A stretch of DNA of 64,000 nt from an uncultured Eubacteriales bacterium. GTDB lineage: Bacteria; Bacillota; Clostridia; Oscillospirales; CAG-272. The stretch's first letter is position 1. The number at the start of each line of letters is the position of its first letter. The position numbers and the translations under genes were made by a program. The stretch covers positions 1,271 through 65,270 of the forward strand of contig URDX01000009.1 of the NCBI GenBank assembly GCA_900546695.1, given 5' to 3'. Positions 26,281-29,778 of this stretch are shown one piece after another. The notes beneath the pieces are model-generated. The model worked only from the letters and a program-made list of their open reading frames with translations. It searched no databases and was not told the DNA's origin.

Positions 26281-27069
26281 TCAGGACAGCATCGCCTTGT
26301 CGGAGAGCTCTCCGCCTGCGGTAGAGAAGAGCTTAACGAGCTCTTCGGGCGTGAGCTTTTTCTTCTCTTCGCCCTTGATATCTACGACAACTCTGCCTTC
26401 GTGCATCATGATAAGGCGGTTGCCGTGCGTGATGGCATCGTGCATGTTATGCGTTATCATGAGAGCGGTGAGCGAGTTTTCCTGTATTATCTTCTCGGAG
26501 AGGTCGAGCACCTTAGCTGCGGTTTTGGGGTCAAGTGCGGCGGTGTGCTCATCGAGCAGAAGCACCTTCGGCTTCTTGAGCGATGCCATGAGCAGGGTCA
26601 GCGCCTGACGCTGACCGCCCGACAGCAGTCCGACGCGGCTCGACATTCTGTCCTCAAGACCGAGGTCAAGGTCACGCAGCAGCTCGCGGTAGTGCTCGCG
26701 CTCGGCTCTCGTGATGCCCCATCCGAGTCCGCGGAATTTGCCCCTGCGCGCGGCGAGTGCAAGGTTCTCGTCTATCTGCATGGTCGGAGCGGTGCCCAGC
26801 ATGGGGTCCTGAAATACACGTCCGATATAGATCGCGCGTTTATATTCGGGGAGGCGGGTGACATCCTTTCCGTCGATGAGTATCTTTCCCGAATCGACAC
26901 GATAGGTTCCCGCAATCGTATTGAGCATGGTGGATTTTCCTGCGCCGTTTCCGCCGATGACGGTTACGAACTCGCCCTCGTTTATTGTCAGGTTAAGTCC
27001 GCAGAGTGCATGCTTTGCGTTGACGGTGCCGGGATTGAAGGTGAGGTGTATATCATGAAGCTCAACCAT
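26281..27069 (-). CDS. ABC transporter ATP-binding protein (putative Trp/Tyr uptake family)
   Basis: Walker A GGNGAGKST, signature LSGGQRQAL, Walker B LLLDEHT. Overlaps the permease gene by 8 nt. Confidence 0.8.
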   Translation of the reverse strand: MVELHDIHLTFNPGTVNAKHALCGLNLTINEGEFVTVIGGNGAGKSTMLNTIAGTYRVDSGKILIDGKDVTRLPEYKRAIYIGRVFQDPMLGTAPTMQIDENLALAARRGKFRGLGWGITRAEREHYRELLRDLDLGLEDRMSSRVGLLSGGQRQALTLLMASLKKPKVLLLDEHTAALDPKTAAKVLDLSEKIIQENSLTALMITHNMHDAITHGNRLIMMHEGRVVVDIKGEEKKKLTPEELVKLFSTAGGELSDKAMLS

Positions 27070-28042
27070 TTATTTTGCCTCCCTCTGCTGCGACGGCAGC
27101 GGTCTTGCCTACCTTTCTCTTGCTTGCCTTTGCCTTAAAATACGGAAGAGCGAGGAAGAGCGCGACTATAATAGCGGTGAAGAGCTTAAGGTCATCGGTG
27201 TTAAGACCGAGCTTAAGCACGACGGTCATTGCAAGGTAGTAGATGATAGCGCCGATAACGACCGACAGCAGCTTGAGTGCAAAGTTCTTGAATACCTTAG
27301 AGAGCAGCACTTCGCCGACGATGACCGCAGCGAGTCCGATTACTATCGCACCTCTGCCCATATTGATATCGGCAAAGTTCTGATACTGCGAGAGCATTCC
27401 GCCGCAGAGCGCGACGAGACCGTTCGAGAGCATGAGACCGAGAACGATATTCGTGCTTGTGTTGATGCCCTGTGCGCGTGCCATGTTCTGATTTGCGCCC
27501 GTTGCACGGATGGAGCAGCCGCGTTCCGTTCCGAAGAACCAGTACAGCAGAGCGATTATTCCGATAATAAACGCAAGCAGAATGAGCGCGGATTTTAAGA
27601 TGGTCGAGGTCGACTCGCCGAGGGTGAAGTTAGAGGACGAGAGGACGCTTGACATATTGAAGGGGAGAGGGATATTTGATCTTGTCGAGACAAAGCCTCC
27701 CATGATACGGAGATTTATCGAGTAGAGGGCGAACTGTGTAAGAATTCCCGCAAGGATAGCGGGTATTCCGCATGCGGTGTGCAGCAGACCCGTGACGAGA
27801 CCCGCGAGCAGACCGCTGAGAAACGAGCAGAGCAGGGCGAGCCATGGGTTGACACCCGAGGAAATCAGGATAACGCAGACCGCGCCGCCCGTAGCGAGCG
27901 AGCCGTCGACCGTAAGGTCGGCGATATCGAGAATACGGAAGGTTATGTAAACTCCGATAGCCATTACGCCCCATATCAGACCCTGCGCTGCAACGCTCGG
28001 CAGCGAGCCGGCGAGGGATGAAAAGAAGTTTAAAATTGCCAT
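27062..28042 (-). CDS. ABC transporter permease (BPD_transp_2 type)
   Basis: 326-aa polytopic membrane ORF located between the SBP and ATPase genes. Confidence 0.8.
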   Translation of the reverse strand: MAILNFFSSLAGSLPSVAAQGLIWGVMAIGVYITFRILDIADLTVDGSLATGGAVCVILISSGVNPWLALLCSFLSGLLAGLVTGLLHTACGIPAILAGILTQFALYSINLRIMGGFVSTRSNIPLPFNMSSVLSSSNFTLGESTSTILKSALILLAFIIGIIALLYWFFGTERGCSIRATGANQNMARAQGINTSTNIVLGLMLSNGLVALCGGMLSQYQNFADINMGRGAIVIGLAAVIVGEVLLSKVFKNFALKLLSVVIGAIIYYLAMTVVLKLGLNTDDLKLFTAIIVALFLALPYFKAKASKRKVGKTAAVAAEGGKING

Positions 28043-28223
28043 AGCTTATTTTCCTTTTACGGTTAATACGGTGATTCGTTTATTCTTGTCGCTGAAGGGA
28101 ACGGGCAATACACAATCATCATATGCGGCGATATCCGCACCGAGTAGAATGAATAAATATCAATCCGCGGTGAAAAATGCTCCGCTCTGAGCGACGTTCT
28201 TTGTCTATCCTTAAAACCGAGCT

Positions 28224-28249
28224 ATGGGAAAGGTGTAAACCTTTCCCAT
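28224..28249 (-). other. Intra-operon stem-loop between the SBP and permease genes
   Basis: Perfect 11-bp stem, ATGGGAAAGGT-gtaa-ACCTTTCCCAT, inside a 327-nt spacer. The downstream U-tract on the minus strand is weak. Confidence 0.4.
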
Positions 28250-28369
28250 ATTTGCATATTTACATTGTCGGCTGCATGCACCGCCGGGCGGCACGCGCGG
28301 TTGTCGATTGCTTAGGTCGGCGAAATGCGCCGCGCTGATGCACTGTGATGCGGCTTCCGACTGCTTTTA

Positions 28370-29374
28370 TCAGCCCTCGGTACTGAGAGCGGTATACTCG
28401 TCGGACGGAACCTTAATTCCGAGCTGCTCGCAGATCTCGGGATTGTAGTACTTAACAAAGCTATTGCTGTACTCGATAGGCATTTCGGATACCTTGGATT
28501 CACCCTTGAGTATCTTTACAGCCATTTTACCGGTGGTCTCGCCGAGCGACTTATAGTCGATGGAGAGGGTAGCAACACCGCAGTTGGAGCAGATACCCTG
28601 CTCACCTGCTACTACGGGGACCTTTGCCGGAACGGTTACGTTCGCGATAGCCTTGCCGTTGGAAGCAGCGGTGTTATCGGTCGGGATATAGATTACGTCG
28701 CTCTCGTCGCATGCTGTCTTGGTTACCGATGCAACGTCGTTAGTGTCGGTAAAGGAGTAGGGCTTAACGGTGTAGCCGAGGTCCTTAAGGTAGGGGGTGA
28801 TGGTGTCTATCTGATACTTGCTGTTAGGCTCTGCGGAGCAGTAGAGAAGACCGACATTCTTTGCATCGGGGAACCACTCCTTGATCATAGCAGCCTGCTG
28901 ATCGAGCGGAGCAAGGTCGGATGCGCCGGAGATGTTTCCGCCGACGGTGCCTGTCCAGTTGCTTATCTGGAGCGCGGTTGCGTAATCGGTGATGGAGGTA
29001 CCGAGAACGGGTATGGTCTTAGTTGCGCTTGCCGCTGCCTGAAGCGGTGCGGTAGCGTTTGCGAGAATGAGGTCAACGCCGTCCGAAACGAAGCCAGAAA
29101 TGATGGTGGTGCAGTTGTTCGATTCGCCCGATGCGTTCTGATTGATTATCTCAACGTTGTCCTTGCCGAGACCTGCCTCGACAGCCTCGATAAAGCCCTC
29201 GGTAGCAGCGTCAAGAGCGGGGTGCTGTGCGAGCTGGCATATACCTATCTTGTACTTGCCGTTCGACGCAGACGCGCCGCTTGCCGTAGTCTCTGTTGTT
29301 CCTGTGTCGGAGCTGCATGCACACATCGTTCCGAGTGTTGTGACTGCAAGCAGTGCCAAAAGAAATCTCTTCAT
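28370..29374 (-). CDS. ABC transporter substrate-binding lipoprotein (ABC_sub_bind/PF04392 type; putative Trp/Tyr transporter family)
   Basis: Start at the ATG at 29374 (MKRFLLALLAVTTLGTMCACSS, a lipoprotein signal) with a GGAGGG RBS. KIGICQLAQHPALDAA and the overall layout fit this SBP family. Confidence 0.8.
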   Translation of the reverse strand: MKRFLLALLAVTTLGTMCACSSDTGTTETTASGASASNGKYKIGICQLAQHPALDAATEGFIEAVEAGLGKDNVEIINQNASGESNNCTTIISGFVSDGVDLILANATAPLQAAASATKTIPVLGTSITDYATALQISNWTGTVGGNISGASDLAPLDQQAAMIKEWFPDAKNVGLLYCSAEPNSKYQIDTITPYLKDLGYTVKPYSFTDTNDVASVTKTACDESDVIYIPTDNTAASNGKAIANVTVPAKVPVVAGEQGICSNCGVATLSIDYKSLGETTGKMAVKILKGESKVSEMPIEYSNSFVKYYNPEICEQLGIKVPSDEYTALSTEG

Positions 29375-29487
29375 GATCGAATCCCTCCGTATAAAAATGT
29401 TCATGAATATTTATGTGTATCGGGCGATGCCCGTTACAACCTCTCTCATGCCGCATACGCGGCGCAGCTCGCGCTCAGCCGAACGCG

Positions 29488-29540
29488 AAAAATGATAAAA
29501 ATGATAAAAATATAAGCGGCTGCGTCTTATGACGAGCCGC
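29488..29540 (-). terminator. Intrinsic terminator inside the 5' leader of the ABC operon (candidate attenuator)
   Basis: Minus strand: GCGGCTCGTC-ataa-GACGcAGCCGC (29540-29516), followed by TTATATTTTTATCATTTTTATCATTTTT. It lies about 140 nt upstream of the SBP start. Confidence 0.6.
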
Positions 29541-29563
29541 TCTGCCTTAACCGTGTGAAGGTA

Positions 29564-29665
29564 TTATGCGGCCCTGTGAAAATAATAATATCGGTAAGCC
29601 TCAAAACGCGCATAGGTATAGACCGAGCCGACAAAATTTCTCTGTGCGAAAAACGCTCCTGCCAT
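29564..29665 (-). CDS. Candidate 33-aa Tyr/Phe-rich leader peptide
   Basis: Manual translation gives MAGAFFAQRNFVGSVYTYARFEAYRYYYFHRAA. AGGAGG lies 9 nt upstream of the ATG at 29665. The TAA stop (29566-29564) is 23 nt upstream of the terminator stem. 11 of 33 residues are Tyr or Phe. Confidence 0.45.
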   Translation of the reverse strand: MAGAFFAQRNFVGSVYTYARFEAYRYYYFHRAA

Positions 29666-29749
29666 TTCAGTCCGCCTCCTGTCGTATTTTTTCGGGCTCC
29701 GAAAAGCCGCATCGGAAAGGAAGAAAGTTCCTATCCCTTACGATTGCAT

Positions 29750-29778
29750 ATTTTATCACTTTATCCTGCAAAAGTCAA
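29750..29778 (-). promoter_or_regulatory. Sigma-A type promoter for the ABC importer operon
   Basis: Minus strand reads TTGACT (29778-29773), a 17-nt spacer, then TGaTAAAAT (29758-29750). Confidence 0.55.

Follow-up and report, generated by a model that had tools for sequence, protein, structure and literature searches.

We analyzed the leader of a transporter operon in a 64,000-nucleotide stretch of DNA (here called the window) from an uncultured gut Clostridia lineage; the whole analysis is computational. The operon lies on the minus strand and, based on profile matches, encodes a PF04392 lipoprotein substrate-binding protein (SBP; 28370 to 29374; E-value 2e-58), a BPD_transp_2 permease (27062 to 28042), and an ATP-binding cassette (ABC) ATPase (26281 to 27069), which confirms the operon type given in a preliminary description of this DNA. 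Between the promoter and the SBP gene lies a leader with a short open reading frame (ORF) rich in Tyr and Phe codons, followed by an intrinsic terminator. The preliminary description proposed that this leader is an attenuator set by the position of a translating ribosome, and it is this proposal that is examined here.

RESULTS

The leader combines a Tyr/Phe-rich ORF with an intrinsic terminator

All features described for the window leader are on the minus strand. The sigma-70 promoter consists of a −35 box (TTGACT; 29778-29773), a 17-nt spacer with a TG extension at 29758-29757, and a −10 box (TAAAAT; 29755-29750); it scores 10 of 12 matches and is identical in the nearest relative, an uncultured Clostridiales bacterium (locus L001). 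Transcription presumably starts near 29743. Approximately 78 nt downstream of this presumed start, a Shine-Dalgarno sequence (AGGAGG; 29675-29680) is located 9 nt upstream of the ATG (29665) of an ORF of 33 codons plus TAA (29564-29665; stop codon at 29566-29564), which encodes MAGAFFAQRNFVGSVYTYARFEAYRYYYFHRAA. Aromatic residues account for 11 of the 33 positions (6 Tyr, 5 Phe, and no Trp). The proposed stall site is the codon run Y24-R25-Y26-Y27-Y28-F29 (UAC CGA UAU UAU UAU UUU; 29579-29596), and four codons (H-R-A-A) separate F29 from the stop codon, rather than the five previously counted. The terminator (29514-29542) is formed by a 5' arm, GAGCGGCUCGUC (29542-29531; region 3), the loop AUAA, and a 3' arm, GACGcAGCCGCUU (29526-29514; region 4), and is followed by the U-rich tract AUAUUUUUAUCAUUUUUAUCAUUUUU (29488-29513). 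The hairpin has an energy of −20 kcal/mol, and its GCGGCU core starts 23 nt past the leader stop codon; because one C is bulged, a simple terminator scan missed it. The promoter, the 9-nt spacing of AGGAGG and ATG, the 33-codon ORF, and the terminator with its U tract all lie where the preliminary description had placed them.

The clustering of aromatic codons is unusual for a leader of this composition. Five aromatic residues within a six-codon window, together with a ribosome-binding site, were reached in only 5 of 3,000 dinucleotide-preserving shuffles of the 201-nt leader (p ~0.002). When both strands of the 64-kb window were scanned for a ribosome-binding site and start codon, an ORF of 8-60 codons with at least four aromatic residues in six, and a terminator within 90 nt, this leader ORF was the sole match. 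The four leader peptides that were queried against Pfam and NCBIfam had no match.

Downstream of the terminator, the leader ends in a 67-nt block (29375-29441) directly before the SBP start, which contains a hairpin (CGGGC-AUC-GCCCG) and the SBP ribosome-binding site (GGAGGG). This block is 91% identical to L001, which is above the rest of the leader, attenuator included, while the ~70 nt between the terminator and the block are rich in insertions and deletions relative to L001.

The operon is predicted to encode a tyrosine-type importer

The nearest solved structure to the window SBP is that of Clostridioides difficile CD0873 (PDB 6HNI; E-value 2.7e-54). The ligand of CD0873 is tyrosine, and its specificity has been ascribed to Glu-263, which bonds the hydroxyl group, and Tyr-279, which excludes Trp; Ala replaces Glu-263 in the Phe binder VC_1101 and in the Trp binder SP1069, and Gln replaces Tyr-279 in SP1069 (PMC6816091). 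E258 and Y274 of the window SBP correspond to Glu-263 and Tyr-279, and the same pair is present in all 159 orthologues collected for this study; as a cross-check on the pocket, a Tetragenococcus homologue has Val/Gln, i.e., the Trp-type pattern. The window operon contains the SBP, the permease, the ATPase, and the aromatic pocket by which PF04392 aromatic amino acid ABC importers are recognized. Accordingly, the family named in the preliminary description, that of Trp/Tyr importers, holds, but the ambiguity between the two substrates does not; by homology alone, the window transporter is predicted to be of the tyrosine type. A tyrosine-type importer with a Tyr-rich leader upstream makes a coherent pairing. 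While CD0873 shares the conserved Tyr-specifying residues with the window SBP, the upstream region of its gene is short and AT-rich and has neither a leader ORF nor a T-box, in contrast to the window locus.

Dissimilar leaders of orthologous SBP genes share the same plan

The survey comprised 160 orthologous SBP loci (80 from species-level genomes and 80 from metagenome contigs), almost all from gut Oscillospiraceae, Acutalibacteraceae, Lachnospiraceae, and unnamed Clostridia. In L001, in which the SBP is 93% and the leader 83% identical to those of the window, the 33-codon ORF is kept (MARAFSSERNFVASVYTYAHFEAYRYYFMHRAA), as is the spacing from the stop codon to the terminator (20 nt vs 21 nt), while the spacer is rewritten. 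The top of the L001 terminator stem is rebuilt (GCA/UGC for CGUC/GACG) and its base is conserved. The ORF is likewise kept in L081, L083, and L085. A search of metagenomes for further leaders of the window type returned only the L001 species again (L081 and L083-L085) and L087. In L084 (VOFK01000650.1), the leader ORF is thrown out of frame by single-base homopolymer insertions; indels of this kind also occur in other parts of the contig, which suggests long-read sequencing errors and not biology. L087 (metagenome contig ERZ773114.20141, upstream of position 648) has a similar promoter and a short leader of ~70 nt.

The same plan recurs before orthologous SBP genes in at least 13 additional leader clusters whose DNA has little or no detectable similarity: a ribosome-binding site and ATG are followed by a short Tyr/Phe-rich ORF without Trp and by a terminator located 20-60 nt ahead of the SBP start. 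Examples of the peptides encoded in these clusters are MARFTRYYYAENVDCPTPQQVRGGC; MRAYRYYFIGQTGLFVMDTRTA; MARLTRRFFYYYRNEQ...; ...DYYYGFIARYFAGFFCC...; MKKISCHNFYFAFTYRFSFGYCGC; MYYSYYYGGLRASA; ...FTYAYSYYYFYFSRFS...; and ...SYRVYAAFYYEGYFCC..., all of which lack Trp. Start codons are present in every leader type, and a ribosome-binding site is missing only from the L018 group. The stop codon lies 12-59 nt before the terminator across leader types, and in most types other than that of the window, the terminator ends 18-79 nt from the SBP start codon, leaving little or no room for another promoter. A nucleotide motif common to the leader clusters was not found. The comparison that the preliminary description had called for, i.e., whether orthologous leaders with diverged sequences keep a short aromatic ORF at a conserved distance from a terminator, therefore comes out in favor of the attenuator, in L001 as well as in these clusters.

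Several counts argue that this recurrence is specific to the position upstream of the SBP gene. The fixed criterion used for the window scan was positive in 34 of 147 leaders (including one false positive, L045, where the match lies within an upstream gene) and in none of the 147 reverse complements. Among 78 loci from species-level genomes, 10 matches fell in the 450 nt before the SBP gene and two in the remaining ~960 kb, a ~140-fold higher density. Upon relaxed inspection, leaders of this kind were recognized in at least 18 of the 80 species; they fall into at least 14 clusters that share little or no similarity at the DNA level. Finally, among 16 leaders chosen only for a terminator near the SBP start, 13 contain an aromatic ORF. 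For the window taken by itself, one could entertain that an ORF and a hairpin came together by chance in an AT-rich leader, given how short the ORF is and that only two distinct sequences of exactly this leader type are available. However, the shuffles, the single match in 128 kb (both strands of the window), the absence of matches among reverse complements, and the enrichment before SBP genes make chance an extremely unlikely explanation.

The spacing data also bear on whether the ORF could be a separate gene for a small protein, served by a promoter and terminator of its own, with the transporter transcribed from a separate promoter further downstream and no attenuation involved. In favor of this reading, the window has a gap of 138 nt between terminator and SBP start, which includes the 67-nt block conserved with L001. 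However, no promoter-like site is predicted in the gap, most other leader types have the terminator 18-60 nt from the SBP start, and the peptides are neither conserved as proteins nor members of a Pfam or NCBIfam family. We therefore regard a separate small gene as very unlikely.

Two further observations concern the ORFs. In L018, L023, and L033, the ORF (e.g., MKKISCHNFYFAFTYRFSFGYCGC) lies ~180-220 nt upstream of the SBP start and begins ~10 nt after a TATAAT sequence, without a ribosome-binding site; translation of these ORFs may start on a transcript that is leaderless or almost so. A CGA Arg codon stands directly before the aromatic run in the window (29593-29591) as well as in L002, L003, L004, L007, L031, and L130, in contexts such as CGA UAU UAU UAU, CGA UAU UAC UUU, and CGA UUU UUU UAC. 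Its recurrence suggests either that these leaders descend from a common ancestor or that a codon read slowly is of functional importance.

The leader ORFs carry signs of codon-level sensing and of RNA constraint

Composition and codon usage were determined for 14 non-redundant leaders, a representative set that was partly chosen for aromatic richness, such that the reverse-complement and genome-background controls described above provide the unbiased numbers. The ORF frame is free of stops, and Tyr accounts for 11.9%, Phe for 11.3%, and Trp for 0% of its residues. By comparison, Tyr drops to 0.9-3.9% and Phe to 4.8-5.9% in the other two frames, which contain 16-17 stops, and the proportions in the adjacent SBP genes are 3.4% for Tyr and 2.1% for Phe. 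Codon choice differs as well: the TAT:TAC ratio is 36:20 in the leaders vs 39:118 in the adjacent SBP genes (Fisher p 2e-7), and the TTT:TTC ratio is 43:10 vs 27:71 (Fisher p 2e-10). This bias toward the wobble-read codons TAT and TTT fits sensor codons selected for slowness; alternatively, it could reflect a preference for U at the RNA level.

Tyr and Phe swap freely among related leaders (e.g., DYYYGFIARYFAGFF vs GFYYGFMARFYAGYF). This exchange is relevant to a different kind of leader peptide, a ligand-sensing arrest peptide resembling TnaC or SpeFL that stalls the ribosome when free tyrosine is abundant and would render the importer substrate-induced instead of starvation-induced. A geometry in which stalling is followed by antitermination suits either direction of the response, and substrate induction is conceivable because gut Clostridia can ferment tyrosine (tyrosine use by C. 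difficile is discussed in PMC6816091). However, the TnaC/SpeFL class requires a conserved peptide, whereas the only thing common to the leaders is aromatic composition; the clusters differ completely in length and sequence, Tyr and Phe are interchangeable, and the bias toward TAT and TTT points to codon-level sensing. An arrest peptide of this kind is accordingly highly improbable.

In the L009-type leaders, the apparent peptide motif A-R-[YF]-x-A-G corresponds to a hairpin, GCUCGC-loop-GCGGGC, whose loop contains the aromatic codons. ORF-internal hairpins are present in L009, L017, L065, L077, L130, L096, and L015, and compensatory double changes in the L009-type hairpin (CGA/UCG in L130, UGC/GCA in L096 and L015) alter the encoded residues. 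The hairpin may function as a pause hairpin or as a hairpin of the region 1:2 type. The 5' untranslated region (UTR) of L009 repeats the sequence of the terminator 5' arm, GCCGCUCUG. Altogether, these patterns indicate that RNA structure and coding jointly constrain these leaders.

These structural features are also what would be expected of an RNA element that works without translation, in which a protein or small ligand acting on a structured U/A-rich leader sets the choice between terminator and antiterminator and the ORF is incidental. The window leader folds far better than its shuffles (z-score −3.7 to −4.7), the L009-type hairpin is kept by changes that cost amino acids, and the preference for U-ending codons could serve U-rich loops. 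Yet a purely RNA-based element does not call for the start codons and, outside the L018 group, ribosome-binding sites of these leaders, nor for a frame that remains open until a stop codon located 12-59 nt ahead of the terminator while the other frames have 16-17 stops and no Tyr enrichment. Moreover, no nucleotide motif is shared across clusters, and neither an Rfam match nor TRAP-like triplet repeats were found. For these reasons, we consider such an element unlikely.

In constrained folds, a candidate antiterminator forms with the ribosome at Y24, Y26, or Y27

Minimum-free-energy folds of the window leader show a 5'-proximal hairpin (GGGAUAGGAAC-UUUC-UUCCUUUCC; 29714-29736). Immediately downstream, region 1 (GAUGCGGCUUUUCGG; 29699-29713), located in the 5' UTR and containing another GCGGCU like that in the 5' arm of the terminator, pairs with the 3' end of the ORF (CCGA...GGGCCGCAU), and the Tyr run sits in an unpaired internal loop. 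In L001, region 1 carries an A-to-G change that preserves the pair as G-U. We speculate that region 1 might act as an anti-antiterminator. We also considered whether this long-range pairing of 5' UTR and ORF 3' end could stand for a classical region 1:2 helix, and rejected a simple equivalence because the helix would not be masked by a stalled ribosome.

Region 2 (GGGCCGC; 29568-29574), the candidate 5' strand of the antiterminator, overlaps codons 31-33 just before the stop codon. It is followed by a spacer hairpin (CCUU-CACACGGUU-AAGG; 29545-29561) that would stack inside the antiterminator and that differs in L001 (ACCU-UUGUAU-AGGU). For constrained folds, 28 nt around the ribosomal A site were masked, and the RNA ended before the 3' arm of the terminator emerges. 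Placing the A site at Y24, Y26, or Y27 yields a helix of GGGCCGC (29574-29568) and GCGGCUC (29540-29534) that stacks on the CCUU/AAGG hairpin, whereas an A site at Y28, F29, or the stop codon abolishes this region 2:3 pairing. The duplex has an energy of −14.9 kcal/mol vs −8.5 ± 2.3 kcal/mol for shuffles (p ~0.02). In a comparison of cognate with non-cognate combinations of region 2 and terminator arm, the cognate pairs are stronger in the window and L001 and strongly so in L002 (−29.5) and L004 (−22.7). In the latter two, the terminator arm and the segment just 3' of the Tyr run have changed in concert, alongside a complete change of the encoded peptide. A general antiterminator test, covering the sequence from the aromatic run to the terminator 5' arm, was significant only in the window, L001, L002, and L004, and a convincing antiterminator was not identified in leaders of the L009 and L018 types. 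In our assessment, the antiterminator step is the weakest part of the mechanism proposed below.

The window leader does not match known regulatory elements

There are no Rfam matches at gathering score anywhere in the window. At E ≤ 10, the leader itself gave two chance matches only, with no T-box and no amino acid leader family (Phe, Trp, His, Leu, Thr, or leu/phe). In 80 orthologous loci, the T-box core motif was not found upstream of the gene; the single match lies far off, on the other strand. Rfam searches upstream of the SBP gene in 20 loci detected neither a T-box nor a riboswitch. Based on these searches, we agree with the preliminary description that the leader contains neither. TRAP-type regulation calls for nine to eleven (G/U)AG triplets spaced by 2-3 nt, whereas the leader has seven scattered triplets without a run of three or more.

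In Rfam searches of 29 related loci, T-boxes were found only downstream in L026 and L065 and upstream of a homologue with a Val/Tyr pocket in L171. Those in L026 (5845-6095) and L065 (6206-6450) are situated on the downstream side of the transporter operon, where they control a different gene. The T-box in L171 (541-867), from a Clostridium sp., precedes the PF04392 homologue itself, and its specifier is probably UUC (Phe).

A candidate operator overlaps the promoter

The spacer of the window promoter contains the near-palindrome ACTTTTGCAGGATAAAGT (ACTTTW-N6-TAAAGT; 29758-29775), a candidate operator. A related palindrome, RCTTT-N5-7-AAAGY, overlaps the promoter in 74 of 147 orthologous leaders, whether a leader ORF is present or not, against a rough chance expectation of ~0.02 per 450-nt leader; the loci include L009, L016, L017, L037, L040, L063, L065, and many others. 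We suggest that the promoter-spacer palindrome is probably the operator of a dedicated regulator, which points to a second layer of control by an additional repressor. A second promoter type, in L002-L005, L007, and L031, has the palindrome GGTGTATAATACACC over the −10 box. Beyond a sensor of hungry codons, a composite scheme of a class of its own is conceivable, in which aromatic codons are displayed in hairpin loops and read by wobble, the nascent peptide or the RNA senses tyrosine directly, a dedicated repressor acts at the operator, and the importer is induced by its substrate in tyrosine-fermenting gut Clostridia; we judge this scheme quite unlikely.

Elsewhere in the operon, a hairpin, AUAUGGGAAAGGUUUACACCUUUCCCAUAG followed by CUCGGUUUU (28223-28250, minus strand), lies within the 327-nt gap between the SBP and permease genes and is nearly identical in L001, with diverged flanks. 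It is probably a partial terminator or a stabilizer that gives surplus SBP transcript.

DISCUSSION

We propose, with a probability of about 75%, that the window leader is a ribosome-mediated attenuator that senses the charging of tRNA-Tyr, and probably of tRNA-Phe, and gates a tyrosine-type PF04392 importer. This proposal builds on the parts found in the leader, their recurrence in dissimilar leaders, the frame-specific enrichment of Tyr and Phe, the codon bias, and the tyrosine-type pocket of the SBP. From these, we infer that the ORF is translated, that the ribosome stalls at the codon run, which RNA segment acts as the antiterminator, and in which direction the system responds; most likely, the importer is switched on when tyrosine runs short. 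Features by which leader-peptide attenuators are defined and that can be examined in a genome all appear to be present, with the position-dependent antiterminator only partly supported. The logic of leader-peptide attenuation put forward in the preliminary description is thus supported by the comparative test, the frame-specific enrichment, and the codon bias.

According to this model, transcription would begin at the promoter at 29778-29750, and a ribosome would load at AGGAGG and AUG (29680 and 29665) to translate the 33-codon leader. When Tyr and Phe are plentiful, the ribosome would reach the stop codon (29566-29564) with its footprint over GGGCCGC (29574-29568), such that the terminator (29542-29514) folds and transcription stops in the U tract (29513-29488). 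Under a shortage of charged tRNA-Tyr or tRNA-Phe, the ribosome would instead stall in UAC-CGA-UAU-UAU-UAU-UUU (29596-29579). The free GGGCCGC could then pair with GCGGCUC (29540-29534), stacked on the small CCUU/AAGG hairpin, and thereby sequester the 5' arm of the terminator before the 3' arm is made, in which case RNA polymerase would read through into the SBP, permease, and ATPase genes.

Several observations weigh against this reading. With regard to the antiterminator, it is short (7 bp plus a 4-bp hairpin) compared with a terminator of −20 kcal/mol, and in the full-length leader with a stalled ribosome, the thermodynamic optimum still contains the terminator, because region 2 can pair with the unmasked GCGGCU copy in the 5' UTR (29713-29699). 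A working switch therefore requires either a kinetic decision or sequestration of the 5' UTR copy in a local hairpin, for which UUUUCGG-AGC-CCGAAAA is a possibility by inspection. The GGCCGC:GCGGCU antiterminator of the preliminary description is accordingly supported by the constrained folds, in which it depends on a ribosome at Y24, Y26, or Y27 and is absent once the stop codon is reached, but not by the full-length optimum, which keeps the terminator. Across leaders, the region 2 duplex test taken alone is non-significant in 15 of 19, and the combined p of 0.001 is driven by four. With regard to the leader ORF, the peptides of the window and L001 differ at 8 of 33 residues and at 2 of 11 aromatic positions, which is roughly neutral, and the window's own leader type is known from these two distinct sequences only. 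Phe codons are as frequent as Tyr codons in the leader, for which the tyrosine-type pocket gives no explanation. The codon statistics come from leaders partly chosen for aromatic richness, and in the L009-type subgroup, part of the peptide pattern is RNA structure, with a hairpin that covaries at the expense of the amino acids. With regard to distribution, approximately three-quarters of the orthologues are without such a leader, and L087, with 83% SBP identity, lacks both the leader ORF and the terminator, arguing that the attenuator has been gained or lost recently. Lastly, the terminator and the SBP start of the window are 138 nt apart, although a second promoter is not predicted there.

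The proposed attenuator has the layout of trpL, pheL/pheA, pheM/pheST, and hisL in Proteobacteria, in which a short ORF with a run of cognate codons and an intrinsic terminator lie upstream of the structural genes. With these systems, it would also share an antiterminator selected by ribosome position and induction upon a shortage of charged tRNA. It differs from the proteobacterial systems in that the host belongs to the Clostridia, Tyr and Phe codons would be sensed, and the target is an ABC transporter for uptake and not a biosynthetic operon or an aminoacyl-tRNA synthetase. Moreover, the candidate anti-antiterminator is in the 5' UTR instead of over the regulatory codons, and the leader has no Rfam leader match at E ≤ 10.

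In Gram-positive bacteria, amino acid sensing is usually done by T-boxes, and a leu/phe leader motif is known in Lactococcus. The preliminary description called leader-peptide attenuation rare in Firmicutes; it is indeed uncommon, but precedents have been reported, namely a His leader before hisS/hisZ paralogues in bacilli (PMC2965389), a Leu-rich attenuator peptide of the Staphylococcus aureus ilv operon (PMC5794164), and the Listeria ilv leader (PMC5864092). Together with the Lactococcus motif, these leaders use the same mechanism and show that it is feasible in the phylum; they differ from the window leader in their amino acids, targets, and taxa (Bacilli), and have no sequence relationship to it. 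For transporters of the same family, trpX(YZ) of Streptococcus suis is controlled by a Trp T-box that has been tested experimentally (PMC9382623). S. suis trpXYZ and the Clostridium sp. locus L171 have in common with the window operon the transporter family, the charging of an aromatic tRNA as the signal, and a terminator/antiterminator output, but the sensor is a tRNA-binding RNA in the former two, while in the window, which has no T-box, we propose that it is the translating ribosome.

A full-text literature search returned no description of a Tyr or Tyr/Phe leader peptide, nor of such regulation of PF04392 transporters. To our knowledge, no Tyr leader peptide has been described to date. Judged from the sequence comparisons, we conclude that the feature is real and that Tyr/Phe leader-peptide attenuation is best viewed as a new form of classical ribosome-mediated attenuation.

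If this is correct, tyrosine, with phenylalanine, would join the amino acids that are sensed through leader peptides. The leaders could serve as compact amino acid-responsive parts for engineering anaerobes. For the transporter, the leader would provide a regulatory argument, independent of that from the pocket, that tyrosine is imported by what is poorly annotated as a "Trp/Tyr" transporter. The many dissimilar versions of the leader would constitute a natural series for the origin, drift, and loss of attenuators. Moreover, gut Clostridia (Oscillospirales) would repeatedly use ribosome-mediated attenuation at a gene that is controlled by T-boxes in other Firmicutes, which would be a clear case of sensor replacement at one locus.

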